Both the position numbers and the translations under genes were made by a program. Positions 5,530 to 23,053 of a DNA stretch of 38,876 bases are shown in pieces. Every line of letters starts with the position of its first letter. The stretch's first letter is position 1. The stretch comes from Shigella phage CT02. Location of the stretch: the sequence record OP917825; one strand, given 5' to 3'. A model generated the notes under the pieces. It worked only from the letters and a program-made list of their open reading frames with translations. It searched no databases and had not been told where the DNA came from.

Positions 5530-5534
5530 GTGTT

Positions 5535-6166: not shown

Positions 6167-6187
6167 TTAACTTAAGGACACACTGAA

Positions 6188-7297
6188 ATGACTTTCACCG
6201 AAGCACAAGCCGCACTCGAAGCTATCCGCAACCTGCCGATTGAGCGCCTGAACGAACGCCAGCCCATGCTGGTGGCTCTTGCGGCTGCTATCGTGAACGA
6301 TGAGACTCAAGACGGCGAACTGACGCAGGCCAAGGGCAATTGGGGTCTGGAGTCTATGGACTACTGGCAGACACTGGCTGAGCGTATGCGTGATGTTGGA
6401 TTTGTACGCTTGGGTAACGGTCACTTTAGCGCAGCATATGAGCACGCATTGTTACCGGGCAAGGTCATCAAGGTAGGCTTTAAGAAAGAGGACTCAGGCG
6501 CAGCCTATGCAGCCTTCTGCCGTATGAACCAAGGCCGGGAAGGTATCCCTACGGTGTACGACATTCAGCGTCATGCTGGTTGTTACACGGTGGTTCTTGA
6601 TTATCTGAACCCGCTTAACGACTGGTGCTACGGTGAGAGTGACAAGGTGCGTCACCACTTCAAAGCCGCACGGGAAATCATTGAGGAGGATTGCTTCGAT
6701 ACCGCCGAAGAGTACCCAATAAGTGACGGGTTCATTGAGACCTGCAAGGATATCCGCAAGTTCTTCTTAGGCATCGCATCGTTCGATTGTCACAGCGGTA
6801 ACATGATGAAAGACCAGATGGGACGCCTGATTATCACAGACCCGGTATCATTCAGCGCAGACGACAAGTTAAAGCCGGGTGAGTTCCACTGTGACCCGGA
6901 TGAACTCATCGCTGAGATTGAGGCGCTGAGAGCGCAGGAAGCGATTGACCGCTGTAAGGCACGCAAGGCACGCCGTGACCCTAAAGGAGACTTTCAGGTA
7001 GCACGAAAGGCCCGTGCCAAATGGCGCAGAAAGGCCTCTAAGCGTGAAAAGCGCAACGCTAAGGTACTCGCTAAGATGCGCATGGATGCCAACGAGCAAC
7101 GCAGGGCCGAGCCTAGGGCACGTATGTTGTGGGGGGATAAGCACTGGCGCAACGCTTGGGTGCAGCACATGAATGTTGACTTCGCACGGCTCGAACTGTT
7201 AGCAGCCGCACAGATGGCACAGATAGACCACAAGGCTATCGTATGGGGCAAGCCGTTACACATAGACGCATACCTTGACAAGAGACTGCAAGGCTGA
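6188..7297 (+). CDS. Ser/Thr protein kinase with host-shutoff domain (gp0.7)
   Basis: 369-aa ORF; conserved block GNGHFSAAY...KVIKVGFKKEDSGAAYAAFCRM...QRHAGCYTVVLD matches recalled T7 gp0.7; basic Arg/Lys-rich C-terminus. Confidence 0.9.
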   Translation: MTFTEAQAALEAIRNLPIERLNERQPMLVALAAAIVNDETQDGELTQAKGNWGLESMDYWQTLAERMRDVGFVRLGNGHFSAAYEHALLPGKVIKVGFKKEDSGAAYAAFCRMNQGREGIPTVYDIQRHAGCYTVVLDYLNPLNDWCYGESDKVRHHFKAAREIIEEDCFDTAEEYPISDGFIETCKDIRKFFLGIASFDCHSGNMMKDQMGRLIITDPVSFSADDKLKPGEFHCDPDELIAEIEALRAQEAIDRCKARKARRDPKGDFQVARKARAKWRRKASKREKRNAKVLAKMRMDANEQRRAEPRARMLWGDKHWRNAWVQHMNVDFARLELLAAAQMAQIDHKAIVWGKPLHIDAYLDKRLQG

Positions 7298-7367
7298 TAG
7301 AGTCTTTTCTTACAGGTCATCATGAGGTGGCCTGAATAGGAACGATTTATCCATAGTGAGGCAAGCA

Positions 7368-10022
7368 ATGAACATCATCGAAACTATCGAAAAGAATGAC
7401 TTCTCTGAAATCGAACTGGCTGCTATCCCGTTCAACACGCTGGCAGACCACTACGGCAGCGCACTGGCTCGTGAACAACTGGCTTTAGAGCACGAGTCTT
7501 ATGAGTTAGGTGAGCGCCGCTTCCTCAAGATGCTGGAGCGTCAAGCGAAAGCTGGTGAGATTGCAGACAACGCAGCCGCTAAGCCGTTACTCGCTACGCT
7601 TCTCCCTAAGTTAACCGCACGTATCGTAGAGTGGCTCGAAGAGTACGCCTCGAAGAAAGGCCGCAAGCCTAGCGCATACGCACCGCTCCAGTTACTCAAG
7701 CCGGAAGCCTCCGCGTTTATCACCCTGAAAGTTATCCTTGCGTCACTGACCAGCACGAACATGACAACCATTCAGGCCGCTGCTGGTATGCTGGGGAAGG
7801 CCATTGAGGATGAGGCACGTTTCGGGCGCATCCGTGACCTCGAAGCGAAGCACTTCAAGAAGCACGTTGAGGAGCAGATTAACAAGCGCCACGGGCAAGT
7901 CTACAAGAAAGCCTTTATGCAGGTGGTCGAGGCTGATATGATTGGTCGAGGTCTGCTTGGTGGCGAGGCGTGGTCTAGCTGGGATAAAGAAACCACGATG
8001 CACGTAGGGATTCGCCTGATTGAAATGCTGATTGAATCCACGGGTCTGGTGGAACTACAGCGACACAATGCAGGTAACGCAGGCTCTGACCATGAGGCAC
8101 TGCAACTGGCCCAAGAGTACGTCGATGTATTAGCGAAGCGTGCAGGCGCTCTGGCGGGTATCTCTCCGATGTTCCAGCCGTGTGTCGTACCGCCGAAACC
8201 TTGGGTAGCAATCACCGGGGGCGGCTATTGGGCTAACGGTCGCAGACCTTTGGCACTCGTTCGCACTCACTCTAAGAAGGGCTTGATGCGCTACGAAGAC
8301 GTTTACATGCCAGAAGTCTACAAGGCTGTGAACCTCGCGCAAAACACCGCATGGAAAATCAACAAGAAAGTTCTTGCGGTTGTCAATGAGATTGTGAACT
8401 GGAAGAACTGCCCGGTCGCAGACATTCCATCTCTGGAGCGCAAAGAGTTACCACCTAAGCCGGACGACATTGACACCAACGAGGCAGCACTCAAGGAGTG
8501 GAAGAAAGCCGCCGCTGGTATCTACCGCTTGGACAAGGCACGAGTGTCTCGCCGTATCAGCTTAGAGTTCATGCTGGAGCAGGCCAACAAGTTCGCAAGC
8601 AAGAAAGCAATCTGGTTCCCTTACAACATGGACTGGCGCGGTCGTGTGTACGCTGTGCCGATGTTCAACCCGCAAGGCAACGACATGACGAAAGGTCTGC
8701 TGACCCTCGCTAAAGGAAAACCAATCGGTGAGGAAGGTTTCTACTGGCTGAAAATCCACGGTGCGAACTGTGCGGGTGTCGATAAGGTTCCTTTCCCTGA
8801 GCGCATCGCGTTCATTGAGAAGCACGTAGACGACATTCTGGCTTGCGCTAAAGACCCTATCAATAACACTTGGTGGGCCGAGCAGGATTCACCCTTCTGT
8901 TTCCTCGCGTTCTGCTTCGAGTATGCAGGCGTTGCGCACCACGGTATGAGCTACAATTGCTCTCTGCCGCTGGCGTTCGACGGGTCTTGCTCCGGTATCC
9001 AGCACTTCTCCGCGATGCTCCGCGATGAGGTAGGCGGTCGCGCGGTTAACCTACTGCCAAGCGAAACCGTGCAGGACATTTACGGCATCGTTGCACAGAA
9101 AGTAAACGAGATTCTCAAACAGGATGCAATCAACGGCACACCTAACGAGATGATTACCGTGACCGATAAGGACACCGGGGAAATCTCTGAGAAGCTCAAG
9201 CTGGGAACCTCAACGCTGGCGCAACAGTGGCTGGCATACGGTGTCACCCGTAGCGTAACTAAACGTTCGGTCATGACGCTGGCTTACGGTTCTAAGGAGT
9301 TCGGCTTTCGTCAACAGGTACTGGACGACACCATTCAGCCTGCGATTGACAGCGGTAAGGGCTTGATGTTCACCCAACCTAACCAAGCGGCTGGCTATAT
9401 GGCTAAGCTGATTTGGGACGCGGTGAGCGTGACCGTAGTCGCAGCGGTTGAGGCGATGAACTGGCTCAAGTCTGCCGCTAAGCTGCTGGCTGCTGAGGTC
9501 AAGGACAAGAAAACCAAGGATATTCTGCGCCACCGTTGCGCGGTTCACTGGACTACGCCGGACGGCTTCCCGGTCTGGCAGGAATACCGCAAGCCACTCC
9601 AGAAGCGTCTCGATATGATTTTCTTAGGGCAATTCCGTCTGCAACCGACGATTAATACCCTCAAGGATTCAGGCATTGACGCACACAAGCAGGAGTCTGG
9701 CATCGCTCCTAACTTTGTTCACTCACAGGATGGTAGCCACCTCCGCATGACAGTCGTTTATGCTCACGAGAAGTATGGCATTGAGTCCTTTGCGCTCATT
9801 CATGACAGCTTTGGGACTATCCCGGCAGACGCTGGTAAGCTCTTTAAGGCTGTGCGTGAAACGATGGTTCTCACCTACGAGAACAACGATGTGCTGGCAG
9901 ACTTCTATGACCAGTTTGCAGACCAGCTACACGAGACCCAACTGGACAAGATGCCTCCGCTTCCGAAGAAAGGAAATCTGAACCTGCAAGACATTCTCAA
10001 GTCTGACTTTGCCTTTGCATAA
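7368..10022 (+). CDS. Single-subunit DNA-dependent RNA polymerase (gene 1), T3 type
   Basis: ORF 7356..10022; start ATG 7368 (MNIIETIEKNDF...) after RBS GAGG; 884 aa; near-identical to recalled T3 RNAP, and the genome's promoters carry the T3 consensus. Confidence 0.95.
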   Translation: MNIIETIEKNDFSEIELAAIPFNTLADHYGSALAREQLALEHESYELGERRFLKMLERQAKAGEIADNAAAKPLLATLLPKLTARIVEWLEEYASKKGRKPSAYAPLQLLKPEASAFITLKVILASLTSTNMTTIQAAAGMLGKAIEDEARFGRIRDLEAKHFKKHVEEQINKRHGQVYKKAFMQVVEADMIGRGLLGGEAWSSWDKETTMHVGIRLIEMLIESTGLVELQRHNAGNAGSDHEALQLAQEYVDVLAKRAGALAGISPMFQPCVVPPKPWVAITGGGYWANGRRPLALVRTHSKKGLMRYEDVYMPEVYKAVNLAQNTAWKINKKVLAVVNEIVNWKNCPVADIPSLERKELPPKPDDIDTNEAALKEWKKAAAGIYRLDKARVSRRISLEFMLEQANKFASKKAIWFPYNMDWRGRVYAVPMFNPQGNDMTKGLLTLAKGKPIGEEGFYWLKIHGANCAGVDKVPFPERIAFIEKHVDDILACAKDPINNTWWAEQDSPFCFLAFCFEYAGVAHHGMSYNCSLPLAFDGSCSGIQHFSAMLRDEVGGRAVNLLPSETVQDIYGIVAQKVNEILKQDAINGTPNEMITVTDKDTGEISEKLKLGTSTLAQQWLAYGVTRSVTKRSVMTLAYGSKEFGFRQQVLDDTIQPAIDSGKGLMFTQPNQAAGYMAKLIWDAVSVTVVAAVEAMNWLKSAAKLLAAEVKDKKTKDILRHRCAVHWTTPDGFPVWQEYRKPLQKRLDMIFLGQFRLQPTINTLKDSGIDAHKQESGIAPNFVHSQDGSHLRMTVVYAHEKYGIESFALIHDSFGTIPADAGKLFKAVRETMVLTYENNDVLADFYDQFADQLHETQLDKMPPLPKKGNLNLQDILKSDFAFA

Positions 10023-10033
10023 CAAGCACTTAG

Positions 10034-10056
10034 CATTAACCCTCACTAACGGGAGA
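10034..10056 (+). promoter_or_regulatory. T3-class phage RNAP promoter (phi1.05)
   Basis: CATTAACCCTCACTAACGGGAGA; transcript start is followed by a perfect hairpin GGGAGAC-TACTTAAG-GTCTCCC (10051-10072). Confidence 0.7.
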
Positions 10057-10108
10057 CTACTTAAGGTCTCCCACTTTAAGACACTTTAGGTACTAAGAGA
10101 TTAAATTT

Positions 10109-10381
10109 ATGATTAACATTAAGACTTTCTTTAAGAACATCTTTAAGTTAAACCGCTTGACTTCCGTTAAGTTCTACGCTTGGATGCCCGGTAGTGATGA
10201 CCTCCGCAAGACTGAATTTAAGTTAGGCTTAGGGCCGTGCGGTAAGGTGGTCACGAAGTTGGAATGTTACTCAACGGCCTCCGGGATGGTCATCTTCCAG
10301 ACTACTGAGGACAACGAAACGAAATCCTTCTACTACCCGAAAGGTTCAACGTGTGGTCGTATCGAACGGACATGTAGTTAA
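10109..10381 (+). CDS. Hypothetical protein (1.05 position), 90 aa
   Basis: ORF bracketed by two phage promoters; AT-rich relative to neighbours; weak RBS; stop overlaps the next promoter. Confidence 0.45.
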   Translation: MINIKTFFKNIFKLNRLTSVKFYAWMPGSDDLRKTEFKLGLGPCGKVVTKLECYSTASGMVIFQTTEDNETKSFYYPKGSTCGRIERTCS

Positions 10382-10398
10382 CCCTCACTAACGGGAGA
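10376..10398 (+). promoter_or_regulatory. T3-class phage RNAP promoter (phi1.1)
   Basis: AGTTAACCCTCACTAACGGGAGA. Confidence 0.7.
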
Positions 10399-10402
10399 GT
10401 TA

Positions 10403-10437
10403 AACTTAAGGTCATCACCAGCGGTGGCCTTTGTGAT
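10403..10437 (+). promoter_or_regulatory. RNase III-type processing hairpin (R1.1-like)
   Basis: AACTTAAGGTCATCACCAGCGGTGGCCTTTGTGAT; conserved flank family. Confidence 0.5.
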
Positions 10438-10473
10438 TAACTTTCAATACACATCAACACGAGGTAAGATACT

Positions 10474-10614
10474 ATGCGTACCAACTTTGAGAAATTTACC
10501 AAGCGCGATTCAGTGGTCAATGAGCATGGCGAACAGTGGCAAGAGCGCCGTGACCGCATGAAGAAACGCCACAAGCAACAGCGCGGTAACTCACAGAAAC
10601 GGGAGTGGAACTAA
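10474..10614 (+). CDS. gp1.1-like small basic protein (46 aa)
   Basis: ATG 10474 after RBS GAGGT; product MRTNFEKFTKR... resembles T7 gp1.1; not in the ORF track because it is under 60 aa; stop overlaps the 1.2 start (TAATG). Confidence 0.55.
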   Translation: MRTNFEKFTKRDSVVNEHGEQWQERRDRMKKRHKQQRGNSQKREWN

Positions 10615-10889
10615 TGATGGGACGTCTCTATAGCGGCAACCTGAACGATTACAAAGATGCGGTAGCGCGTCTACAGGAAGACCATGACGTGACCGTGAAG
10701 ATGGAGTCATTCAGCTATGAAAACCCAGCGAAGATGTGCAGGTCATCCGGTGAGGTTCTCCGTGTGTTCACACGCTCCGGGCATCTGGTGGCATCCAGAA
10801 CCTTCGAGCACAGCGACAGCGATGTACAAATCAACGCGCAGACTGCATGGCTCCGCAAGGTTCACAGCGATTTGAAACACTGGAAGTAA
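10614..10889 (+). CDS. gp1.2-like protein (host dGTPase inhibitor family)
   Basis: ORF 10605..10889; preferred start ATG 10614 (MMGRLYSGNL...) overlapping the 1.1 stop; C-terminus ...DLKHWK resembles T7 gp1.2. Confidence 0.65.
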   Translation: MMGRLYSGNLNDYKDAVARLQEDHDVTVKMESFSYENPAKMCRSSGEVLRVFTRSGHLVASRTFEHSDSDVQINAQTAWLRKVHSDLKHWK

Positions 10890-10909
10890 TAACCCTCACT
10901 AACAGGAGA
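10887..10909 (+). promoter_or_regulatory. T3-class phage RNAP promoter (phi1.3)
   Basis: AATAACCCTCACTAACAGGAGAA; its +1 region supplies the AGGAG RBS of the next ORF. Confidence 0.7.
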
Positions 10910-10915
10910 AACGAA

Positions 10916-11332
10916 ATGAGAAACATCGAACGGTTCAACGCAAAGACTGAACCTTGCGGTGACTGTCTACGTTGGACTGGTCGAATCCAGCCTAACGGTT
11001 ACGGACAGTTTCGCCTCGAAGGTAAAACACAATACGCACATCGAGCAGCTTACAAGCTGTTTATCGGTGAACTGGACAATAAAGATACAGTCCTTCACTC
11101 GTGCGACAACAGGTGGTGTGTGAACCCTGAGCATTTGACCAAGGGAACGCAGGCCGATAACCTGAAAGACATGGCGATAAAGGGTAGACACCACGCCATT
11201 AAGATTCCGAACGATGCCATTGAGGGCATCCGCAAAGACCCTCGCTCTTCCACTGCGATAGCGGCTGAGTGGGGAGTCCACCCAACAACCATCCAGAAGA
11301 TTAAGCGAAATATCAACAGGAGATTCGTATGA
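10916..11332 (+). CDS. HNH endonuclease (homing-endonuclease-like), 138 aa
   Basis: Motif HSCDNRWCVNPEHLTKGTQADN (HNH with conserved His/Asn) plus upstream CGDC; start ATG 10916 after AGGAG; ORF-track start 10847 overlaps gene 1.2. Confidence 0.75.
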   Translation: MRNIERFNAKTEPCGDCLRWTGRIQPNGYGQFRLEGKTQYAHRAAYKLFIGELDNKDTVLHSCDNRWCVNPEHLTKGTQADNLKDMAIKGRHHAIKIPNDAIEGIRKDPRSSTAIAAEWGVHPTTIQKIKRNINRRFV

Positions 11333-12345
11333 ACATTTTCAAGACCGCGCCATATAAAGCTGTATCCTTTGTCGAGTCTGCCGTGCGTAAAGCTCTGGAG
11401 ACTTCCGGCTACCTGATAGCTGATTGTAAATATGACGGTGTTCGTGGAAACATTGTGGTTGACAACGTGGCGGAAGCAGCGTGGCTGTCTCGCGTCTCCA
11501 AGTTCATCCCGGCGCTGGAACACCTGAACGGTTTCGATAAGCGCTGGCAGCAACTACTGAACGATGACCGCTGCATCTTCCCGGACGGCTTCATGCTGGA
11601 TGGTGAACTGATGGTCAAAGGCGTAGACTTCAACACAGGGTCTGGCCTGCTGCGTACCAAGTGGCTCAAGAAGAACAACTTCATGTTTGACCGTGGTGGT
11701 GTTGAGCCGCTGAAAGGTTCCAAAGTAGCATTTGAGTTAGACCCCAAGCGCCTGAGCGTGCGCCTGTATGCTGTCATGCCGATTCACATTGCGGAGTCTG
11801 GCGAGGACTACGATGTACAGAACCTGCTGATGCCGTATCATGTGGAAGCCATGCGCTCTCTTCTGGTTGAATACTTCCCGGAAATCGAGTGGCTTATCGC
11901 TGAGACCTACGAGGTCTACGATATGGATTCGCTGACTGAACTGTACGAAGAGAAGCGTGCCGAAGGTCACGAGGGTCTCATTGTGAAAGACCCACAAGGT
12001 ATCTACAAGCGAGGCAAGAAGTCTGGCTGGTGGAAGCTCAAGCCTGAGTGTGAAGCCGACGGTATCATTCAGGGTGTCAATTGGGGAACCGAAGGTTTAG
12101 CCAACGAGGGTAAAGTGATAGGCTTTAGTGTGCTTCTTGAGACTGGTCGTTTAGTAGACGCCAACAACATCTCTCGCGCACTGATGGACGAGTTCACAGC
12201 CAACGTTAAAGCCCACGGTGAAGACTTCTACAACGGGTGGGCCTGTCAGGTCAACTATATGGAAGAGACCCCGGACGGCTCCCTGCGTCACCCTAGCTTC
12301 GAGAAGTTCCGAGGCACTGAGGACAACCCTCGAGAGAAAATGTAA
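11329..12345 (+). CDS. ATP-dependent DNA ligase (gene 1.3)
   Basis: 338-aa ORF; adenylation motif KYDGVRG; extensive similarity to recalled T7 ligase; start overlaps the HNH stop (ATGA). Confidence 0.9.
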   Translation: MNIFKTAPYKAVSFVESAVRKALETSGYLIADCKYDGVRGNIVVDNVAEAAWLSRVSKFIPALEHLNGFDKRWQQLLNDDRCIFPDGFMLDGELMVKGVDFNTGSGLLRTKWLKKNNFMFDRGGVEPLKGSKVAFELDPKRLSVRLYAVMPIHIAESGEDYDVQNLLMPYHVEAMRSLLVEYFPEIEWLIAETYEVYDMDSLTELYEEKRAEGHEGLIVKDPQGIYKRGKKSGWWKLKPECEADGIIQGVNWGTEGLANEGKVIGFSVLLETGRLVDANNISRALMDEFTANVKAHGEDFYNGWACQVNYMEETPDGSLRHPSFEKFRGTEDNPREKM

Positions 12346-12393
12346 CCAACTCACTGGCTCACCTTAACGGGTGGGCCTTTCTTCGTTCAGAGG

Positions 12394-12416
12394 TATTAAC
12401 CCTCACTAACAGGAGA
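12394..12416 (+). promoter_or_regulatory. T3-class phage RNAP promoter
   Basis: GTATTAACCCTCACTAACAGGAGA. Confidence 0.7.
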
Positions 12417-12424
12417 CACACACC

Positions 12425-12502
12425 ATGTGGCTTATCCTATTCGCTATCGTCGCAACTCTGGGATTAATGGTTGCCGACGACAACATTTGGCCTGATTGTT
12501 AA
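12425..12502 (+). CDS. Possible 25-aa hydrophobic peptide (1.4/1.5 position)
   Basis: ATG 12425 directly after the promoter/AGGAG; product MWLILFAIVATLGLMVADDNIWPDC; too short for the ORF track. Confidence 0.3.
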   Translation: MWLILFAIVATLGLMVADDNIWPDC

Positions 12503-12514
12503 GGAGACAACATC

Positions 12515-12772
12515 ATGCGTTTACACTTCAACAAATCAAATGGTATCTTTTCGGTTCGCCGTGAAGACCGCTCTACGGCAGTGGCCTCTGAGCGCAACGC
12601 CAAGCTGCCGCTGATTGGTTTGGTCGTCCCATTGTCGCCTCGTGTTCACCTACTGATCACTCGTGGAGAGTTCATTAAGGCGATGAACAAAGAGCGCCCG
12701 CATCTGGAAGCCGTGGTCACTTACTGGCCTCGCATCCGTCTGTTCGTTAAGTGGATTAAGGAGGTACTATAA
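12515..12772 (+). CDS. gp1.6-like protein
   Basis: 85-aa ORF with RBS AAGGAGA; C-terminus GEFIKAMN...HLEAVV.YWP...WIKEVL resembles T7 gp1.6. Confidence 0.55.
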   Translation: MRLHFNKSNGIFSVRREDRSTAVASERNAKLPLIGLVVPLSPRVHLLITRGEFIKAMNKERPHLEAVVTYWPRIRLFVKWIKEVL

Positions 12773-13344
12773 TGTTGCAACATCATTGGAACAAACCAGA
12801 CTTAGAGGCTCGCTTCCCGGTTAACTCTGCTGTTCGTTATTCGGGCGATAACCCAGTTCTCAAGGGTCTGACCGGAACAGTGCAGGGTTACTCTCACACT
12901 GGTCGAGTGAAGGTTCGCTTCGGTGTTCGTGAGGCGGAGGTACACCCCTCCGTACTAATCCCGCTACCGAAAGTAGGCCCGAACGTGGAAGCACCGAAGT
13001 CAGCAGTCAAGTCTGACGTGACCAACCCTAATATCAGCCTTCACACATCGAACTGTAAGATTTGGAATGGCGCTAATCGGTGTACCTGTGAGCCAGCCAG
13101 CGACGACGGTGTTAAGCAGCCAAGGCACTACCAGCTGTTCGATAACGTGGAAGCCATTGAGGTTATCGCCCGGTCAATGACAGTCGAGGCGTTCCGTGGG
13201 TACTGCTTAGGGAACATCCTTAAGTATCGCCTGCGTGCTGGCAAGAAATCCGAACTGGCAACTATGGAGAAAGACCTCAATAAAGCTGCATTCTATCAGG
13301 AACTCTTTGACAAACACCGGGGGCTGTGTTATGACGCTTCGTGA
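12772..13344 (+). CDS. gp1.7-like protein (nucleotide kinase family)
   Basis: 190-aa ORF at the 1.7 position; start overlaps the 1.6 stop; identification by synteny and size. Confidence 0.55.
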
Positions 13345-13477
13345 ATGCTGCGATTGGTGTGCCGCTAAGTGGAACCAAGCTATCGAGGCTGGTGACAAGG
13401 CGGCTGCTGACGCTTACCAACAACTGTACGCGCTGTGGGAGCGGCGCTTTAAGGAGGCTCAAAGTGGAGCAACGTGA
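13331..13477 (+). CDS. gp1.8-like small protein (48 aa)
   Basis: Internal ATG 13331 of ORF 13235..13477; 48 aa equals the T7 gp1.8 length; overlaps the 1.7 end. Confidence 0.45.
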
Positions 13478-13628
13478 ACAGAAATACCTTCTGACGCTGG
13501 AGGGTAACACCGAGTCCTTTGAGGTTCCGGTATTCGCCCGGTCTCTCGAAGAGGCAACACTACAGGCTGAACATTATGAGGACGCAGGGTTCGTAGTGAC
13601 TCGCATCCGTCCAGAAGTGAAAGCCTAA
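13464..13628 (+). CDS. Host RNA polymerase inhibitor (gp2-like), probable GTG start
   Basis: RBS AAGGAGG (13451-13457) then GTG 13464; product ...[34 protein letters not shown] resembles T7 gp2; the longer ATG version (13341) would lie entirely within 1.8. Confidence 0.55.
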
Positions 13629-13648
13629 TTACCCTCACTAAAGGGAAC
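13626..13648 (+). promoter_or_regulatory. T3-class phage RNAP promoter (phi2.5)
   Basis: TAATTACCCTCACTAAAGGGAAC. Confidence 0.65.
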
Positions 13649-13680
13649 AACCCAATCATTAACCACAAAGGAGAAACATT

Positions 13681-14379
13681 ATGGCTGGTTTCAAGAAGAA
13701 AATCTACACCTCTGGTCTTGGTACTGCTGAGCCTTATGCTTACCTGAGTAAGCCGGATTACGGCAACGAAGAGCGTGGCTTCGGCAACCCTCGTGGTATC
13801 TATAAGGTAGACCTGACTCTTTCCAATAAAGACCCGCGCTGTCAGGCAATGGTCGATGAAATCGTGAAGACTCACGAAGAGGCTTATGCTGCTGCCGTGG
13901 AAGAGTTCGAAGCTAACCCGCCTCAGGCACAGCGTGGTAAGAAACCGCTGAAACCTTACGAGGGCGACATGCCGTTCTTCGATAACGGTGACGGTACGAC
14001 TACCTTCAAGTTCAAATGCTATGCGTCTTTCCAAGACAAGAAGACCAAAGAGACCAAACACATTAATCTGGTCGTTGTCGATAGCAAGGGCAAGAAGATT
14101 CAGGACGTTCCGATTATCGGCGGCGGCTCTAAGCTGAAAGTGAAATACTCTCTGGTGCCTTACAAGTGGAACACCGCTGTGGGCGCAAGCGTCAAGCTGC
14201 AACTGGAGTCCGTGATGCTGGTCGAACTGGCTACCTTCGGTGGTGGTGGTGACGATGAGTGGGCCGATGAAGTCGAAGATGGTGGTTACACTGCGAGTGA
14301 ATCCCGTCAGTCCCGCGATGAGCAGGAGTGGCAGGAAGACGAGCACGAAGAAACCCCGGATGATGACGAGGATTTTTAA
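13681..14379 (+). CDS. Single-stranded DNA-binding protein (gp2.5)
   Basis: 232-aa ORF, same length as T7 gp2.5; acidic C-terminal tail ending DDDEDF; RBS AAGGAGA. Confidence 0.9.
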   Translation: MAGFKKKIYTSGLGTAEPYAYLSKPDYGNEERGFGNPRGIYKVDLTLSNKDPRCQAMVDEIVKTHEEAYAAAVEEFEANPPQAQRGKKPLKPYEGDMPFFDNGDGTTTFKFKCYASFQDKKTKETKHINLVVVDSKGKKIQDVPIIGGGSKLKVKYSLVPYKWNTAVGASVKLQLESVMLVELATFGGGGDDEWADEVEDGGYTASESRQSRDEQEWQEDEHEETPDDDEDF

Positions 14380-14856
14380 ATGGAACTTAAAGAGAAACTA
14401 AAGGCTTACAGCGAAGTTTCTCATAACGGGTGCTGGGAGTGGCAACGCTACCGGATGCCCTGTGGTTACGGTAGGATTAGACACGGAGGCCGCATGGAAC
14501 TAACGCATCGTCTATCCTACCTAGCATTCAACGGGGATATACCTGAGGGTCTTGTTGTTCGCCATAAGTGTGACAACAAATGCTGCGTTAACCCTGAGCA
14601 CCTTACGCTAGGTACTCAAAAGGACAACGTTAAGGATGCAATAGACCGTGGTCAATTCGTCTACAGGGAGAACCCGAAAGGTGCAAAGCACCACATGGCT
14701 AAACTTAATGAGAAACAGGTTATGGAGGTTTACAACTCGACACAGACCCAAAGCAGCCTAGCAGAGACCTATGGTGTATCTCGACAATTAATCAGCGCGA
14801 TTAAGAGAGGTAAACTATGGCAGCACGTTACGCAGCACGTGGAGTTAAACGAGTAG
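14380..14856 (+). CDS. HNH endonuclease (homing-endonuclease-like), 158 aa; paralog of 10916..11332
   Basis: Motif HKCDNKCCVNPEHLTLGTQKDN; shares the YG.R..G....HR..Y and CDN..CVNPEHLT.GTQ.DN blocks with the first HNH ORF. Confidence 0.75.
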   Translation: MELKEKLKAYSEVSHNGCWEWQRYRMPCGYGRIRHGGRMELTHRLSYLAFNGDIPEGLVVRHKCDNKCCVNPEHLTLGTQKDNVKDAIDRGQFVYRENPKGAKHHMAKLNEKQVMEVYNSTQTQSSLAETYGVSRQLISAIKRGKLWQHVTQHVELNE

Positions 14857-15272
14857 GATCATATAGAAGCGGCTTAGAGCAGAAGAACATGGAGATGCTG
14901 GAACGTAAGGGAATCAAGGGACAGTATGAGATGTGGTCTATTCCCTATGTTATCCCTGCATCGAACCACAAGTACACACCAGACATAATCCTACCCAACG
15001 GAATCATTATTGAGACCAAGGGTCTATGGGACAGTGAAGACCGTAAGAAACACTTACTGATTCGTGAGCAGATGCCTGAGTTGGATATTCGTTTGGTATT
15101 CTCTTCGAGCCGCTCTAAGTTATACAAAGGGTCTCCAACCAGTTACGGTGAGTGGGCCGAAAAGCATGGTATTCTATTTGCTGACAAGCTGATTCCTGTG
15201 GAGTGGCTTAAAGAACCTAAGAAGGAGATACCGTGGGATAAACTAATTGCAAAGAAAGGAGTTAAGAAATAA
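14817..15272 (+). CDS. Endonuclease I, Holliday-junction resolvase (gene 3)
   Basis: 151-aa ORF; VPYVIPASNH.YTPD...ETKGLW...DRKKHLLIREQ.PELDIR.VFSSSR.KLYKGSPTSYGE matches recalled T7 gp3; RBS AGAGAGG. Confidence 0.9.
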   Translation: MAARYAARGVKRVGSYRSGLEQKNMEMLERKGIKGQYEMWSIPYVIPASNHKYTPDIILPNGIIIETKGLWDSEDRKKHLLIREQMPELDIRLVFSSSRSKLYKGSPTSYGEWAEKHGILFADKLIPVEWLKEPKKEIPWDKLIAKKGVKK

Positions 15273-15727
15273 TGGCCAAGGTACAATTCAAAACGCGCGC
15301 TTCTACGGAAGCAATCTTTGTTCACTGTAGTGCAACCAAGCCAAGCCAGAACATTGGCGTTCGTGAGATTCGTCAGTGGCACAAAGAGCAGGGCTGGTTA
15401 GACGTAGGATATCACTTCATCATCAAGCGTGATGGCACTGTGGAAGCAGGCCGCGATGAACTGGCTGTAGGTTCTCACGTGAAAGGTTACAACCACAACT
15501 CCGTAGGCGTATGCCTCGTGGGTGGGATTGATGATAAAGGCAAGTTCGACGCCAACTTTACACCTGCGCAAATGCAAGCGCTACGTAGTCTGCTGGTCAC
15601 GCTGCTGGCGAAGTATGAGGGTTCAGTCCTTCGTGCTCACCATGACGTTGCACCCAAAGCCTGCCCGTCCTTCGACTTGAAGCGCTGGTGGGAGAAGAAC
15701 GAACTGGTTACATCTGACCGAGGGTGA
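15272..15727 (+). CDS. Lysozyme / N-acetylmuramoyl-L-alanine amidase (gene 3.5)
   Basis: 151-aa ORF; strong similarity to recalled T7 lysozyme (MA.VQFK.R.STEAIFVHCSAT...). Confidence 0.9.
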   Translation: MAKVQFKTRASTEAIFVHCSATKPSQNIGVREIRQWHKEQGWLDVGYHFIIKRDGTVEAGRDELAVGSHVKGYNHNSVGVCLVGGIDDKGKFDANFTPAQMQALRSLLVTLLAKYEGSVLRAHHDVAPKACPSFDLKRWWEKNELVTSDRG

Positions 15728-15731
15728 TACC

Positions 15732-15839
15732 ATGAGGATGATTTGTATTCGCTGTGATAAGCCGTTGAAGAGTCGTGTACCGTCACGTCAGTGTCAGTGC
15801 AAAGACCCAATCAAGGCGGAGGAACACACCGAGGAATAA
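15732..15839 (+). CDS. Possible 35-aa Cys-rich (zinc-ribbon-like) peptide
   Basis: ATG 15732 after RBS GAGGGTG; product MRMICIRCDKPLKSRVPSRQCQCKDPIKAEEHTEE with CxxC...CxC; too short for the ORF track. Confidence 0.35.
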   Translation: MRMICIRCDKPLKSRVPSRQCQCKDPIKAEEHTEE

Positions 15840-15860
15840 TTAACACTCACTAAAGGGAGA
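15838..15860 (+). promoter_or_regulatory. T3-class phage RNAP promoter, variant (upstream of gene 4)
   Basis: AATTAACACTCACTAAAGGGAGA: one C to A substitution relative to the consensus. Confidence 0.55.
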
Positions 15861-15891
15861 CTTAACGGTTTCCCTTTGTTCGCACTATTGA

Positions 15892-17654
<1,763 letters not shown>

Positions 17655-17656
<2 letters not shown>

Positions 17657-17677
17657 TTAACCCTCACTAACGGGAAC
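17655..17677 (+). promoter_or_regulatory. T3-class phage RNAP promoter (phi4.3)
   Basis: AATTAACCCTCACTAACGGGAAC. Confidence 0.7.
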
Positions 17678-17705
17678 AACCATTAAACCATAGGAGACAC
17701 ACACC

Positions 17706-17918
17706 ATGTTTAAATTCATTAACACTTTAGGCAAGCTGGTAGTAAAACTGTATTTCATCGAAGCCAAGAAGCTGGACAAGCAAGCCAAAGCTGATTCACA
17801 GCGAGCCATTGAGTTGGCGAAACAGTCCCGCGAGAAATCCGATGCGGCTGTTAGTGGCATCCACAAGTCGGCAGCGATTGCAGCCAAAGCACAGTCCATG
17901 AGCAAATTCTTTGAGTAA
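17706..17918 (+). CDS. gp4.3-like small protein
   Basis: 70-aa ORF with RBS TAGGAGA; synteny. Confidence 0.55.
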   Translation: MFKFINTLGKLVVKLYFIEAKKLDKQAKADSQRAIELAKQSREKSDAAVSGIHKSAAIAAKAQSMSKFFE

Positions 17919-17930
17919 GGAGCGAACACT

Positions 17931-18215
17931 ATGAGCAAGTCAATCACTCACGCAAACACCATCCGTCTGCCAGACACCGCCGACCAGTTCTCCCGCCGAG
18001 TACACATCAATGTGCGTGGCGAGAAGGTAACGATGGTCTACCACTGGAAAGACCACAAGTCTCCGAAAGCACACACTCAACGAATGACATTGGATGACAA
18101 GCAGGTCGGTCGCTTGATGGGTGCCCTGACTATGGCTGCTGACAAGGTGGTCGGTGACAACCGTGAGCGTCTGGTAGAGTTCGGCGCTGGTATGCAAGAG
18201 ATTATCGAGAAGTGA
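17931..18215 (+). CDS. gp4.5-like small protein
   Basis: 94-aa ORF with RBS AAGGAG; synteny. Confidence 0.55.
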   Translation: MSKSITHANTIRLPDTADQFSRRVHINVRGEKVTMVYHWKDHKSPKAHTQRMTLDDKQVGRLMGALTMAADKVVGDNRERLVEFGAGMQEIIEK

Positions 18216-18217
18216 TA

Positions 18218-18250
18218 AACTCAAGGTCGCCCAAGGGTGGCCTTTATGAT
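18218..18250 (+). promoter_or_regulatory. RNase III-type processing hairpin upstream of gene 5
   Basis: AACTCAAGGTCGCCCAAGGGTGGCCTTTATGAT; conserved flank family. Confidence 0.55.
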
Positions 18251-18282
18251 TATCATTTAATGAGAAACTATAGGAGGGCATT

Positions 18283-20397
18283 ATGCTCGTAAGTGACATT
18301 GAGGCCAACAACCTCTTAGAGAAAGTCACCAAGTTTCACTGTGGCGTTATCTATGACTACCGCGATGGTGAGTATCATAGTTATCGTCCGGGCGACTTCG
18401 GGGCGTATCTGGATGCGCTGGAAGCCGAGGTGAAGCGAGGTGGGCTTATTGTTTTCCATAACGGTCACAAGTATGACGTTCCGGCTTTAGAGAAACTCGC
18501 AAAGCTGCAACTCAATCGTGACTTCAAGTTACCCCGTGAGAATTGTATCGACACATTGGTGCTCTCGCGTTTACTTCATGCTAACCTTAAAGACACAGAC
18601 ATGGGGCTTCTTCGTTCCGGGAAACTACCCGGTCGTCGCTTCGGGTCTCACGCTCTTGAGGCATGGGGTTATCGCTTGGGCGAGATGAAAGGTGAATACA
18701 AGGACGACTTTAAGGCTATGCTGGAAGAGCAGGGCGAAGAATATGTTGAGGGTGCTGAGTGGGTTTCGTTCAACGAGCCGATGATGGCGTATAACGTTCA
18801 AGACGTTGTGGTCACTGTCAAGCTCTTAGAGAAATTCCTTACAGACCTCCACTACTTCCCTGCTGGTATGGACTTCACGAAGTACGATGCGGATTTATTC
18901 TGGCGTGAAGCTGGAGAGTCTGTGGATATTGAACATCGTGCAGCGTGGCTGTTAGCGAAGCAGGAGCGTAACGGCTTCCCGTTCAACACCAAGGCCATTG
19001 AGGAACTTTATGTAGAACTGGCAGCGAAACGCGCCGAACTTCTGCGAAAGTTAACCGAAACGTTTGGCTCGTGGTATCAACCTAAAGGTGGTAAGGAACT
19101 CTTCAAGCACCCACGGACAGGTAAGCCGCTGCCGAGTTATCCTCGCGTGGTCTATCCGAAACAGGGTGGCGTGTACAAGAAGCCTCGTAATAAGGCACAG
19201 CGCGAAGGTCTTGAACCTTGCGACTTGGACACGAGGGATTACATGGAGGGTGCTCCGTACACTCCGGTCGAGTTCGTTACGTTCAAGCCAAGTAGTCGTG
19301 ACCACATTCAGAAGAAACTACAGGAGGCCGGATGGGTTCCTGAGAAGTTCACCGAGAAGGGTGCGCCTGTGGTGGACGATGAGGTCTTGGAGCATGTACG
19401 AGTGGATGACCCTGAGAAGCAGGCGTGCATTGACTTGATTAAAGAGTACCTGATGATTCAGAAGCGAATCGGTCAGGCGGCAGAGGGTGACAAAGCGTGG
19501 TTACGTTATGTTCAAGATGATGGTAAGATTCATGGAGCCGTTAACCCTAACGGTGCAGTTACTGGTCGTGCTACTCATAGTTTCCCAAACCTTGCACAAA
19601 TACCCGGTGTTCGTTCTCCTTACGGGGAGCAGTGTCGTAGTGCTTTTGGTGCCGAACATCATTTGGATGGGATTACTGGTAAGCCGTGGGTGCAAGCGGG
19701 GATAGACGCCAGTGGCTTAGAGTTGCGCTGTCTGGCACACTTCATGGCTCGCTTCGACAACGGAGAGTATGCGAATGAGATTCTCAACGGTGACATTCAC
19801 ACCAAGAACCAGAACGCTGCGGAACTCCCAACGCGCGACAACGCCAAGACCTTCATTTACGGGTTCCTTTACGGAGCCGGAGATGAGAAGATTGGTCAGA
19901 TTGTTGGGGCAGGGAAGGAGCGCGGGAAGGAACTCAAGAAGAAATTCTTAGAGAACACCCCGGCGATTGCAGCGCTACGAGAAGCTATCCAACAGTCTCT
20001 CGTTAAGTCTTCCGCTTGGATTGGTGGTGAGCAGAAAGTCCAGTGGAAACGCCGTTGGATTAAGGGTCTGGATGGTCGCAAGGTTCACGTCAGGTCTCCA
20101 CACGCAGCGCTCAACACATTGTTGCAGTCTGCTGGCGCTCTGATTTGTAAGCTGTGGATTATCAAGACCGAAGAGATGCTCATTGAGAAAGGCTTGAAGC
20201 ATGGCTGGGATGGTGACTTTGCGTACATGGCTTGGGTTCACGATGAGATTCAGGTGGCCTGCCGTACAGAGCACATCGCTCAGATTGTTATTGACACCGC
20301 GCAGGAAGCTATGCGTTGGGTCGGAGAGCATTGGGCTTTCCGTTGTCGTTTAGATACCGAGGGTAAGATGGGGCCGAATTGGGCTGTCTGCCACTAA
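18283..20397 (+). CDS. DNA polymerase (gene 5), family A with 3'-5' exonuclease
   Basis: 704-aa ORF, same length as T7 gp5; N-terminal MLVSDIEANNL... exonuclease motif; RBS TAGGAGG. Confidence 0.95.
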   Translation: MLVSDIEANNLLEKVTKFHCGVIYDYRDGEYHSYRPGDFGAYLDALEAEVKRGGLIVFHNGHKYDVPALEKLAKLQLNRDFKLPRENCIDTLVLSRLLHANLKDTDMGLLRSGKLPGRRFGSHALEAWGYRLGEMKGEYKDDFKAMLEEQGEEYVEGAEWVSFNEPMMAYNVQDVVVTVKLLEKFLTDLHYFPAGMDFTKYDADLFWREAGESVDIEHRAAWLLAKQERNGFPFNTKAIEELYVELAAKRAELLRKLTETFGSWYQPKGGKELFKHPRTGKPLPSYPRVVYPKQGGVYKKPRNKAQREGLEPCDLDTRDYMEGAPYTPVEFVTFKPSSRDHIQKKLQEAGWVPEKFTEKGAPVVDDEVLEHVRVDDPEKQACIDLIKEYLMIQKRIGQAAEGDKAWLRYVQDDGKIHGAVNPNGAVTGRATHSFPNLAQIPGVRSPYGEQCRSAFGAEHHLDGITGKPWVQAGIDASGLELRCLAHFMARFDNGEYANEILNGDIHTKNQNAAELPTRDNAKTFIYGFLYGAGDEKIGQIVGAGKERGKELKKKFLENTPAIAALREAIQQSLVKSSAWIGGEQKVQWKRRWIKGLDGRKVHVRSPHAALNTLLQSAGALICKLWIIKTEEMLIEKGLKHGWDGDFAYMAWVHDEIQVACRTEHIAQIVIDTAQEAMRWVGEHWAFRCRLDTEGKMGPNWAVCH

Positions 20398-20416
20398 TTC
20401 TATAGGAGAAATTATT

Positions 20417-20716
20417 ATGGCTATGACCAAGAAATTTAAAGTGTCATTCGACGTTACCGCTAAGATGGCATCTGACGTTCAGGCAATCTTGGAGAAAGAC
20501 ATTCTGCACCTGTGTAAGCAGGTTGGCTCAGGCGCTATTGTCCCCACTGGTAAACAGAAAGAGATGATTGTCCAGTTCCTGACGTATGGCATGGAGGGAC
20601 TGATGGCCTTCCTTGTGCGAACGTCTTTCCGTGAGGCAATCAAAGATATGCACGAAGAGTATGCCGATAAGGATAGCTTCAAGCTGTCTCCCGCTACTGT
20701 ACGGGAGGTGTTCTAA
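20417..20716 (+). CDS. gp5.5-like protein
   Basis: 99-aa ORF (T7 gp5.5 is 99 aa); RBS TAGGAGA; synteny. Confidence 0.6.
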   Translation: MAMTKKFKVSFDVTAKMASDVQAILEKDILHLCKQVGSGAIVPTGKQKEMIVQFLTYGMEGLMAFLVRTSFREAIKDMHEEYADKDSFKLSPATVREVF

Positions 20717-20925
20717 TGAGTGAATACCTGAAAGTGCTTGCAGCTATCAAAGGCTGCCCTAAGTCCTTTCAGTCGAACTATGTGCGAAACAATGCGGCTC
20801 TCGTAGCTGAGGCCGCTTCTCGTGGACACATTAGCTGTTTGACTGTGGGCGGTCGCAATGGTGGAGCATGGGAGGTCACAGCCTCTGGTGTGCGCTTCCT
20901 GAAACGAATGGGAGGTTGCGTATGA
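20716..20925 (+). CDS. gp5.7-like protein
   Basis: 69-aa ORF; TAATG-coupled to 5.5; synteny. Confidence 0.55.
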   Translation: MSEYLKVLAAIKGCPKSFQSNYVRNNAALVAEAASRGHISCLTVGGRNGGAWEVTASGVRFLKRMGGCV

Positions 20926-21104
20926 TTATGCCTAAAAGTGACACCGTAACGATGACCCGTGATGCGTGGAACGATGTTAGCGCGTACATTGATAAGCTGG
21001 AGAAAGACCTAGAGTTCCTGAATGCGCTTAAGGCGTGTGGTGTGGATAATTGGGACGGATACTCTGATGCAGTCGAAATGGTTTACGGGGAGGATGACGA
21101 ATGA
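20922..21104 (+). CDS. gp5.9-like protein (RecBCD-inhibitor family), acidic
   Basis: Internal ATG 20922 of ORF 20868..21104 after RBS GGAGG; ATGA-coupled to the 5.7 stop; acidic product like T7 gp5.9. Confidence 0.5.
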   Translation: MIMPKSDTVTMTRDAWNDVSAYIDKLEKDLEFLNALKACGVDNWDGYSDAVEMVYGEDDE

Positions 21105-22012
21105 GCCTAATCACATTGAAAGACTTCGCGGAGATGCGTGAAGGTAAGCCTATTGAGAAGGGAGTGCTGGTCATGGATGGTGACTGGTTGGTATATCAGT
21201 CAATGGCTGCTGCCGAAGTTGAGACCGATTGGGGAGACGACATTTGGACTCTTGAGTGTGACCACGCCAAGGCACGGAGCATTCTCGATTCTGCAATCGA
21301 ATCGTACCGAACCCGTAAGAAGGCTTGGAGTGACGCTATGGTTGTTCTGGCGTTTACCGATGATGTGAACTGGCGTAAGGTACTGGTTGATGAGACCTAT
21401 AAGGAGAACCGCAAGGCGACCCGTAAGCCTGTGGGCTACCGTGACTTCCTGTCTAAGCTGTGGGAGCGCGATGAGTTCATTCACATCAAAGAGGACATGC
21501 TGGAAGGCGATGACGTTATGGGCATCATTGGGTCTGGTCACGAGGTCTTCGGCTTCAAGAAGGCTGTGTTGGTCTCCTGTGACAAGGACTTCAAGACTAT
21601 CCCGGACGTTGACTTCCTGTGGTGTACCACTGGTAACATCTTGACGCAGACCAAAGAGACCGCTGATTGGTGGCATCTCTTCCAGACCATCAAGGGTGAT
21701 ATGACCGATGGATACTCTGGGATTCCCGGCTGGGGTGATACGGCAGAAGCCTTCCTGAATGACCCGTTCATTGTGGAGCCTGTAGAGTCCGTGTTGAAGT
21801 CTGGTAAGAACAAGGGGCAGACAGTAACCAAGTGGGTGAAGCGTGCTCCTGATGCGACTGAGACGCTGTGGGACTGCATTAAATCCATTGGTGCCAAAGC
21901 TGGGATGACCGAGCAGGAAATCATCAAGCAAGGCCAGATGGCTCGCATTCTTCGCTTCGAGGAATACAATTACATTGACAAGGAGATTTACTTATGGACG
22001 CCGCGAAGCTGA
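21101..22012 (+). CDS. 5'-3' exonuclease (gene 6)
   Basis: 303-aa ORF; synteny and size match T3/T7 gp6; RBS GGGGAGGA. Confidence 0.9.
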
Positions 22013-22107
22013 TTACTATCGCTGTGCTGGTAGGTATGCTGGCGCGAGGTCTCTGGATGTTAGCTCTCATAGTCCGAGACGTGAAGCGAGACTCCGAGAT
22101 TAAGTGA
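21994..22107 (+). CDS. gp6.3-like peptide (37 aa)
   Basis: ATG 21994 after RBS AGGAG, overlapping the gene 6 end; 37 aa equals the T7 gp6.3 length; hydrophobic. Confidence 0.45.
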
Positions 22108-22109
22108 TA

Positions 22110-22166
22110 AACTCAAGGCTCTCTACAATTAACCCTCACTAAAGGGAAGAGGGAGCCTTTATGATT
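22110..22166 (+). promoter_or_regulatory. RNase III-type hairpin enclosing a phage promoter
   Basis: AACTCAAGGCTCTC ... GAGGGAGCCTTTATGAT arms flank the promoter at 22127..22149. Confidence 0.5.
22127..22149 (+). promoter_or_regulatory. T3-class phage RNAP promoter (phi6.5)
   Basis: AATTAACCCTCACTAAAGGGAAG. Confidence 0.7.
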
Positions 22167-22200
22167 ATTACTTTAAGACTTAACCTTAAGAGGTGAAATT

Positions 22201-22446
22201 ATGTTACAACCAATTAATCATGTTTTAACTCATCCCGATGATATTCCTAGTATGCCTCGTGCAGCTAAAGAGTATCTACAGGTGCGCTTCAATCAGGCTT
22301 ATGTGATGGAGTCTGGGGAGTACCGTGCGCTACGCGCTGCTGGATACTCTGAGTCTTTCATTGCGGGTGTGTTGCATGGTCTGTACCTTGCCTCTCGAAC
22401 ACTTGATGAGATTGAGGTGCGTAAAGAGCAACTGAGACAGGAGTAA
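22201..22446 (+). CDS. gp6.5-like protein
   Basis: 81-aa ORF with RBS AAGAGGTG; synteny. Confidence 0.55.
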   Translation: MLQPINHVLTHPDDIPSMPRAAKEYLQVRFNQAYVMESGEYRALRAAGYSESFIAGVLHGLYLASRTLDEIEVRKEQLRQE

Positions 22447-22450
22447 TTAT

Positions 22451-22702: not shown

Positions 22703-22728
22703 CTGTGGCATAACATAGGGGACACATT

Positions 22729-23043: not shown

Positions 23044-23053
23044 GGAGGACTGA

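Follow-up and report, generated by a model that had tools for sequence, protein, structure and literature searches.

A probable free-standing HNH homing endonuclease gene between genes 2.5 and 3 of Shigella phage CT02 and its linkage to a divergent endonuclease I allele

Gene Organization and Expression Signals at the 2.5/3 Junction

The whole stretch of DNA analyzed here, 38,876 nt from Shigella phage CT02 (sequence record OP917825), is referred to as the window. Between two full-length neighbors, genes 2.5 and 3, it contains an open reading frame (ORF) for a 158-aa protein of the HNH_3 endonuclease family (Table 1). A preliminary description, made from the letters alone, had the ORF begin exactly at the gene 2.5 stop and overlap the gene 3 start by 40 nt, and both statements hold: the TAA of gene 2.5 occupies 14377-14379 with the ATG directly after it, and the overlap spans 14817..14856.

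The same description reported no strong ribosome-binding site for the ORF, and this overlooked a GAGGA motif 7 nt before the ATG. The motif sits within the tail codons of gene 2.5 (Glu-Asp), and it is given as the ribosome-binding site in the annotation of phage LL2, which carries the same gene. In relatives without the HNH gene, the same GAGGA motif lies 6 nt before the gene 3 ATG. At the Shine-Dalgarno position of gene 3, AAGAGAGGTAA is kept in the HNH lineages designated A (the window type), A2, and A3; other Shine-Dalgarno motifs are found at this place in lineage B and in T7. The HNH gene is shown to use the Shine-Dalgarno sequence that serves gene 3 in HNH-less phages, and to provide a replacement for gene 3 in its own 3' end. 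With GAGGA before the HNH gene and GAGAGGT before gene 3, both neighbors therefore stay translatable despite the insertion. This two-site arrangement is what a well-adapted free-standing endonuclease gene would be expected to show.

The window carries T3-type phage promoters. Between 12416 and 15839, no T3-type promoter match was found besides the phi2.5-type promoter upstream of gene 2.5, which reads TAATTACCCTCACTAAAGGGAAC. Since no phage promoter lies between this one and the next one downstream, the HNH gene lacks a promoter and shares its transcript with genes 2.5, 3, and 3.5. Scanning of 13500-16000 for sigma-70 promoters revealed no promoter-like sites, and in the same interval terminator-like sites occurred no more often than by chance, with no sign of an internal terminator like that of the T4 mobE gene.

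Table 1. Features of the 2.5/3 region and of the paralogous locus in the window.
Feature	Position	Strand	Basis or remark
Paralogous HNH_3 gene, 138 aa, between gene 1.2 and ligase gene 1.3	10916..11332	+	Pfam HNH_3 E 4.5e-9
phi2.5-type phage RNA polymerase promoter	13626..13648	+	Corresponds in position to phi2.5 as annotated in phiYeO3-12
Gene 2.5, ssDNA-binding protein, left flank	13681..14379	+	Pfam SBB_T7 E 5e-87
GAGGA Shine-Dalgarno for the HNH gene	14368..14372	+	7-nt spacer to ATG
HNH_3 endonuclease gene, 158 aa	14380..14856	+	ATG start; ORF list
Exchanged block, ~950 nt: HNH-A, gene 3 allele A, and start of gene 3.5	14380..15331	+	
HNH (beta-beta-alpha-metal) core, codons 41-84	14500..14631	+	Pfam match, invariant residues
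C-terminal three-helix bundle, predicted helix-turn-helix DNA-binding domain, codons 108-145	14701..14814	+	AlphaFold model
GAGAGGT Shine-Dalgarno for gene 3	14805..14811	+	In the HNH gene 3' end; 6-nt spacer
Gene 3, endonuclease I	14817..15272	+	Pfam Phage_endo_I E 7e-78
Gene 3.5, amidase/lysozyme	15272..15727	+	Product name from relatives' annotation of the matching gene
First ~60 nt of gene 3.5, imported haplotype	15272..15331	+	Right edge of the block
Next phage promoter downstream	15839..15860		T3-type promoter match

Family, Catalytic Core, and Predicted Fold of the HNH Protein

The 158-aa protein scores 55.6 bits with the Pfam family HNH_3 (PF13392), for which the gathering score is 24.8 (E 3.9e-15), a match well outside chance. 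The match covers residues 41-84 and profile positions 2-45 of 46. The HNH families of PHROG (PHROG 59/6254 HNH) match the protein with E-values down to 3e-37. In an alignment of 74 sequences, the residues C18, H62, C64, D65, C69, N71, P72, H74, L75, and N83 are invariant. H62 is aligned with H75 of the homing endonuclease I-HmuI, and N83 with its N96, in the sequence alignment; from the structure paper of I-HmuI, we take these two residues to be the catalytic His serving as the general base and a metal-binding Asn, respectively.

The AlphaFold model of the protein has a mean pLDDT of 92. An N-terminal sheet precedes the HNH core, and the core is composed of two strands (59-62 and 75-78) followed by a helix (80-89), so that the protein is predicted to adopt the beta-beta-alpha-metal fold. 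Downstream, the model includes three C-terminal helices (111-119, 124-131, and 135-142) with pLDDT above 90. Some of the database homologs are listed with Pfam domains of the helix-turn-helix type: HTH_3, Sigma70_r4, HTH_7, and HTH_23.

Among solved structures, the best match was I-HmuI from Bacillus phage SPO1 (PDB 1U3E), a nicking enzyme, both by sequence (E 0.0036, 21% identity) and by fold (Foldseek E 3e-4 over 153 columns), and the next by fold was I-PpoI. The global TM-score to I-HmuI is low (0.32) because I-HmuI was solved stretched along DNA. The two proteins share the order of their parts, an N-terminal sheet, the HNH core, and a C-terminal helix-turn-helix, as well as Asn at the last metal-binding position of the core. 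I-HmuI differs in being encoded by an intron and in the absence of the invariant Cys residues of the window family, C64 and C69 among them. Judged from these comparisons, the 158-aa protein belongs to the HNH_3 / His-Me finger endonucleases with an intact core, and it would be expected to act as a nuclease.

The copies of the HNH gene in lineage A have only 14 variable sites among six sequences, too few for an interpretable dN/dS, and relatives with 72-83% identity were compared instead. Between HNH-A and these relatives, dN/dS is 0.08-0.12, with synonymous sites near saturation. The ratio of about 0.1 indicates that the protein is maintained by purifying selection. The copy in Klebsiella phage mtp4 has the substitution E73G at a nearly invariant position, and given this substitution, some HNH-A copies may be decaying.

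A second gene of this family is located at 10916..11332. The preliminary description had noticed two blocks shared by the two ORFs; their relatedness is supported, and the likeness is stronger than described, extending over the full length to include both the HNH core and the C-terminal helices (BLASTP, 34% identity over 139 aa, E 1e-26). With a profile built from 74 homologs, these two ORFs were the only HNH_3-type ORFs recognized in the window. The gene at 10916..11332 is also sporadic in relatives, and its distribution is independent of that of the gene at 14380. The proposal that the genome carries two related candidates for selfish endonucleases at pre-existing junctions is thus borne out: both genes are sporadic, and the 2.5/3 junction is empty in relatives.

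Distribution and Empty Junctions

Many Teetrevirus phages (T3-like, Studiervirinae) are 95-97% identical to the window over 25 kb; their hosts are Klebsiella, Serratia, Yersinia, Enterobacter, Shigella, and Escherichia. The whole stretch from gene 2.5 through the HNH gene and gene 3 to gene 3.5 is present in only six of the 552 phage records matching the region. These are the records of Serratia phage HMGUsm2, Shigella phage ESh12, the Klebsiella phages mtp4 and VSG32, and, with two entries, Escherichia phage LL2. The HMGUsm2 protein is 100% identical to the window HNH protein and is annotated as "hypothetical protein", and the LL2 protein is 97.5% identical and annotated as "HNH endonuclease". 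Relatives among the matches listed with 91-92% flank identity lack ~439 nt at this position.

Compared across T7-like phages, the 2.5/3 junction is empty in T3, phiYeO3-12, phiYe-F10, and SH2, and it is filled by gene 2.8 in T7. In the four phages with an empty junction, the stop codon of gene 2.5 and the start codon of gene 3 overlap as TAATG, and the junction reads GACTTCTAATGGCTGG. An Rfam scan of the whole window yielded zero families, group I introns included; an intron-encoded origin of the HNH gene was rejected on the absence of any Rfam match in the window. The HNH gene is free-standing, located outside an intron or intein, and is sporadic with precise empty sites.

Other Occupants of the 2.5/3 Junction

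GenBank phage records and Logan contigs were surveyed for genes occupying the same slot. In T7 the occupant is gene 2.8, whose product (NP_041971, 139 aa) shows 39% identity to the window protein in an alignment of 147 positions (E 2e-33). At least two further lineages were found in Teetrevirus. Lineage B, in 13 records including SH1, 2050H2, and Poynor, is 51% identical to the window protein, and lineage C, in Leclercia phage 10164-302, Patroon, and Klebsiella phage 31, is 41-44% identical. Both share with the window gene the genus of the phage backbone, the slot, and the protein family; their members (gp17 of Citrobacter phage SH1 and gp18 of Klebsiella phage Patroon) are 151-156 aa long, and the 3' ends overlap gene 3. 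They differ from the window in the identity of the protein (41-51%) and in the presence of a third gene 3 allele. Their start contexts are also distinct: the lineage B gene starts 3 nt after a TAA, and the lineage C gene starts with a TTG overlapping a TGA. About 10 records have a B-like gene 3 allele without the lineage B HNH gene, and lineage C was found in the three that were examined.

Relatives with 72-73% identity were found in metagenomic sequences, likewise between gp2.5 and gp3. In one of these contigs (L014), gp2.5 and gp3.5 share 97-99% identity with their T7 counterparts. The position, abutting or overlapping genes 2.5 and 3, is the same in lineages A2, A3, B, and C. The HNH proteins of the slot show 38-83% identity to one another versus 34-38% to the paralog at 10916. 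When IMG/VR was scanned with the slot-family alignment, the matches listed were distant HNH_3 relatives with at most 45% identity. The 2.5/3 junction is therefore a hotspot for at least five HNH lineages.

The Exchanged Block and the Alleles of Endonuclease I

The differences between the window and its empty-site relatives extend beyond the HNH gene. Against Teetrevirus relatives, gene 2.5 shows 96-100% nucleotide identity until its last ~10 nt, and gene 3.5 shows 98-100% identity from about +60 nt onward. The final mismatch specific to lineage A is at alignment column 514, corresponding to 15331 in the window. Gene 3 in the window, designated as allele A, is only ~70% identical at the nucleotide level and 81% at the amino acid level to the allele of HNH-less relatives. 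In 50-nt bins against empty-site relatives, the identity of gene 3 lies at 52-62% through the first 150 nt and mostly at 72-90% downstream.

Within the block, the six carriers are highly similar, with 95.6-100% amino acid identity of the HNH protein and 98-99% nucleotide identity in the gene 3 part. Among 50,697 phage records, allele A is present at an identity of at least 95% only in the six HNH-A records, and the next best match is 76%. Allele A encodes a full-length endonuclease I, and it retains the residues at positions that we take to be catalytic in T7 endonuclease I. Synonymous sites between the gene 3 alleles are saturated. Because of its full length, the retention of these presumed catalytic residues, and the saturated synonymous sites, allele A is considered to be an old functional allele from a distant lineage and no damaged copy.

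The gene 3 of lineages B and C is a third allele, about 68-69% identical to allele A and ~68% to the common allele at the nucleotide level. The gene 3 of lineage C is 92-100% identical to the lineage B allele, and the HNH genes of the two lineages are just 43% identical. This combination indicates that the endonuclease gene alone was exchanged there. A strict one-to-one link between HNH lineages and gene 3 alleles was rejected, as lineage C has the gene 3 allele of lineage B. In every genome examined, the common gene 3 allele is accompanied by an empty slot, and a non-common allele by an HNH gene. In the T7-like metagenomic contig, the HNH gene and gene 3 are replaced as a unit, and the flanks are 92-100% identical to T7.

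These comparisons indicate that the HNH gene entered the Teetrevirus backbone as a block of ~950 nt together with a deeply divergent gene 3 allele. The proposal of an insertion into a pre-existing junction in the preliminary description stands in this respect; that the HNH gene was inserted by itself does not, as the block also replaces gene 3. The polymorphism of the flank is linked to the endonuclease gene, as is characteristic of homing, and allele A would presumably be resistant to cleavage.

Phage Backgrounds of the Carriers

The similarity of the backbones does not follow the presence of the HNH gene, in keeping with a spread of the gene from one background to another. Over 25 kb, the carriers LL2 and mtp4 are 95.0% and 95.3% identical to the window, respectively, and among phages without HNH-A, 2050H2 (lineage B) is 97.1% identical and phiYe-F10 (empty site) is 96.1% identical. 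In gene 2.5, carriers are not closer to the window than non-carriers. The left-flank haplotypes of the carriers differ within 20 nt of the junction, and the haplotype of the window near the junction is the type of phiYe-F10 and T3. Downstream of the block, VSG32 and LL2 each change to another gene 3.5 haplotype, and the points of change differ. All six carriers have an identical right edge of the block. One ancestral import, followed by ordinary recombination of the flanks, explains this shared edge equally as well as repeated homing does. Repeated independent homing behind all six carriers was considered and not retained, as their common right-hand edge makes it not demonstrable.

Relationship to Known Systems and Proposed Mechanism

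The T7 map has included gene 2.8 for decades. The preliminary description omitted this T7 counterpart, which the HNH ORF matches in position and in sequence. Like the window gene, gene 2.8 directly follows the stop codon of gene 2.5 and runs into the start of gene 3, and its product shows full-length homology with the HNH_3 core motifs and the C-terminal helices. It is different in several points: the protein is 19 residues shorter, without the post-core loop of ~10 residues and the 'WQH..Q' tail, the start codon is GTG, the overlap with gene 3 is 20 nt against 40 nt in the window, and the linked gene 3 allele is 67% identical to allele A at the nucleotide level. HNH homing-endonuclease genes are common in T7-like phages, and the window HNH gene is a selfish phage gene of an already catalogued kind. 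In recent T7 work, gp2.8 is treated as a homing endonuclease (bioRxiv 2025.09.07.674715), and SH1 gp17 of lineage B has been noted as a homing endonuclease missing from SH2 and phiYeO3-12 (PMC4925675).

Taken together, the gene at 14380..14856 is probably a free-standing, I-HmuI-like HNH homing-endonuclease gene of the T7 gene 2.8 class, which would spread by intronless homing with co-conversion. During co-infection with an HNH-less relative, the enzyme would nick or cut the DNA of the relative, either around the empty 2.5/3 junction or within the common allele of gene 3. The break would be repaired by recombination, with the HNH-carrying genome as the template. As the gene 3 alleles would be too different to recombine, the conversion tract would extend to the nearest strongly homologous DNA, leftward to the end of gene 2.5 and rightward to the beginning of gene 3.5. 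The HNH gene and the linked gene 3 allele, presumed to be cleavage-resistant, would be copied together because the conversion tract reaches the strongly homologous flanks. Candidates for the target of cleavage are the empty TAATG junction and, in the common allele of gene 3, the 5' 150 nt, the part in which the alleles diverge most. Cleavage, its target, the immunity of the linked allele, and transfer driven by the endonuclease are inferred.

Among systems characterized by experiment, the closest parallel is found in phage T4. MobE is encoded by a promoterless free-standing HNH gene between nrdA and nrdB; it nicks the 5' region of the downstream nrdB in T2, which lacks the endonuclease, and the flanking DNA is co-converted (PMC2790892). 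The window HNH gene is promoterless, too, and the divergence of the downstream gene 3 peaks in its 5' 150 nt. For MobE, activity and mobility were shown experimentally, whereas for the window gene they are presumed. MobE also has an internal terminator, and none stands out at the window gene. Nuclease genes are generally associated with the boundaries of genetic exchange in phages (PMC10448857).

In the literature searched, no cleavage site, nicking, super-Mendelian inheritance, or biochemistry was reported for the window protein or for T7 gp2.8. In the absence of a defence system, wild-type T7 did not outcompete a triple deletion of homing endonucleases (bioRxiv 2025.09.07.674715). This competition is weak evidence against homing because a clean deletion need not recreate the target site.

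Alternative Explanations

It is unlikely, though deserving of consideration, that the HNH gene is kept mainly for a benefit to the phage, as a weapon that cuts competitors or as an anti-defence protein binding DNA ends, with homing being secondary. The long-term purifying selection, with dN/dS of ~0.1, is more than expected of a purely parasitic, decaying gene. T7 without three homing endonucleases loses to the wild type only in the presence of GAPS4, in an assay where mutant and wild type were told apart by primers flanking gp2.8, and a catalytically dead gp3.8 still weakens the protection by GAPS4 (bioRxiv 2025.09.07.674715). However, gp3.8, and not gp2.8, was directly tested in that preprint. 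Most of the close relatives, from hosts of the same genera, lack this gene, and such a benefit is therefore dispensable. The exact empty sites with a linked divergent flank are, moreover, the classic footprint of homing. A beneficial role and homing are compatible, and neither excludes the other.

Quite improbable is a passive origin of the block, in which ordinary recombination among Studiervirinae at the conserved ends of genes 2.5 and 3.5 brought in the ~950 nt and the endonuclease is inactive or irrelevant. T7-like phages are mosaic, the edges of the block are the points where sequence homology resumes, and the right edge is common to all six carriers, all of which would fit such recombination. 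It does not account for the association seen in the genomes examined, in which the non-common gene 3 alleles are always accompanied by a slot HNH gene and the common allele is not, nor for the convergence of at least five HNH lineages on exactly the 2.5/3 junction. The invariant catalytic residues and the purifying selection on the HNH gene also argue against an irrelevant endonuclease.

The reading of the ORF as a normal core gene, conserved in T3-group phages and serving a function other than that of a nuclease, can be discarded as having a negligible probability, since the ORF is absent, with empty sites in its place, from T3, phiYeO3-12, phiYe-F10, SH2, and other close relatives among the matches listed, and the protein is a clear member of HNH_3 with the catalytic residues.

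Biological Significance

Homing of the HNH gene together with its linked allele is the preferred reading. The linkage to the replacement of gene 3 and the occupancy of the slot by multiple lineages fit known principles, and in the literature searched there was no account of either the linkage to the replacement of a whole endonuclease I gene or the occupancy of the slot by multiple lineages. The HNH gene is tied to the replacement of its whole neighbor, and the incoming allele is as far diverged as T3 and T7 are from each other.

The product of gene 3 is a Holliday-junction resolvase needed for DNA maturation. A tentative extension, less likely than not, is that the slot HNH genes and the gene 3 alleles constitute pairs of attack and immunity, in which the endonuclease cuts the common allele of relatives and the linked allele is immune. 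If this is true, the element would be a gene drive replacing a whole functional gene across the boundaries of T3-like and T7-like genera. It would also serve as a weapon of interference competition, and several HNH lineages would compete for the slot.

In near-identical and tractable phages, one and the same junction is either empty or filled by an HNH gene, with at least three lineages of such genes in Teetrevirus. The slot thereby offers a clean natural setting in which intronless homing, the immunity of target alleles, and mosaicism driven by endonucleases can be studied in the T7 group.

Paralogous HNH_3 Gene and Gene 5.3

The paralogue of the HNH_3 gene at 14380..14856 is distributed sporadically, and its distribution does not depend on that gene. 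The whole 10400-12400 stretch is present in 14 phage records, while about 350 nt are missing there in others. Phages 6998, Bumbleweed, and E-2 carry only the paralogue, and ESh12 carries both genes. A T3-type promoter match is found directly upstream of the paralogue.

Homing endonuclease gene 5.3 was reported after the DNA polymerase gene in phiYeO3-12 and SH2 (PMC4925675). At the corresponding place in the window, a 99-aa ORF directly adjoins the DNA polymerase ORF, and no ORF of at least 90 aa lies in the gap between them (20397..20417). Because of this arrangement, the window genome appears, from its ORF order, to lack gene 5.3. The Rfam scan of the window (1..38876) returned no family at the gathering score, and therefore neither group I introns nor known structured RNAs are present in it.

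Coordinates of the features in the window and in the related records
Feature	Record	Position	Remark
T3-type promoter match	window	10888..10909	3 mismatches; directly 5' of the paralogue
Paralogous HNH_3 gene	window	10916..11332
DNA polymerase ORF	window	18283..20397
99-aa ORF	window	20417..20716	directly after DNA polymerase ORF
Start of gene 3	L013 (phage T3 reference)	1087..1130
HNH and gene 3 cassette	L014 (T7-like metagenomic contig)	2181..3076	Logan contig SRR19581649_102123
Lineage C HNH gene	L099, L100, L101 (phages)	1082..1537 in each	151 aa

Individual Copies of the HNH Gene and Gene 3

Among the lineage A carriers, Klebsiella phage mtp4 has Gly at HNH codon 73 in place of the nearly invariant Glu73 of the NPEHL motif, and its copy differs from that of the window by more non-synonymous than synonymous changes. 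The mtp4 gene may be a decaying copy. In Klebsiella phage VSG32, endonuclease I is annotated from an internal start (L007 1509..1892), 72 nt downstream of the ATG that corresponds to the gene 3 start of every other phage. The internal start was probably annotated in error, owing to the overlap of gene 3 with the HNH gene.

The T3 record contains MAGAYAARCTQGRAFRSG near the start of gene 3, where close relatives have MAGAYAARGVRKVGAFRSG. As a result of two small indels, the reading frame is shifted over approximately 8 codons. This appears to be an old sequencing error or else a genuine local frameshift of T3 gene 3.

Exchange at the Junction of Genes 2.5 and 3

The junction is also occupied by a third Teetrevirus HNH lineage, designated as C, whose gene starts with TTG overlapping the TGA stop of gene 2.5. 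The adjacent gene 3 is the lineage B allele (92-100% nucleotide identity), whereas the HNH proteins of lineages C and B are only 43% identical. Lineage C appears to represent a swap of the endonuclease gene alone.

In the metagenomic contig L014, gp2.5 and gp3.5 are 97-99% identical to those of T7. The gene 2.8 position is taken by a different HNH gene, whose product shows 41% identity to gp2.8 and 72% to the window protein, and its gene 3 shows only 54-74% nucleotide identity to T7 gene 3. The combination of T7-like flanks with divergent HNH and gene 3 sequences indicates that the same exchange of the HNH/gene 3 cassette extends to the T7 genus.
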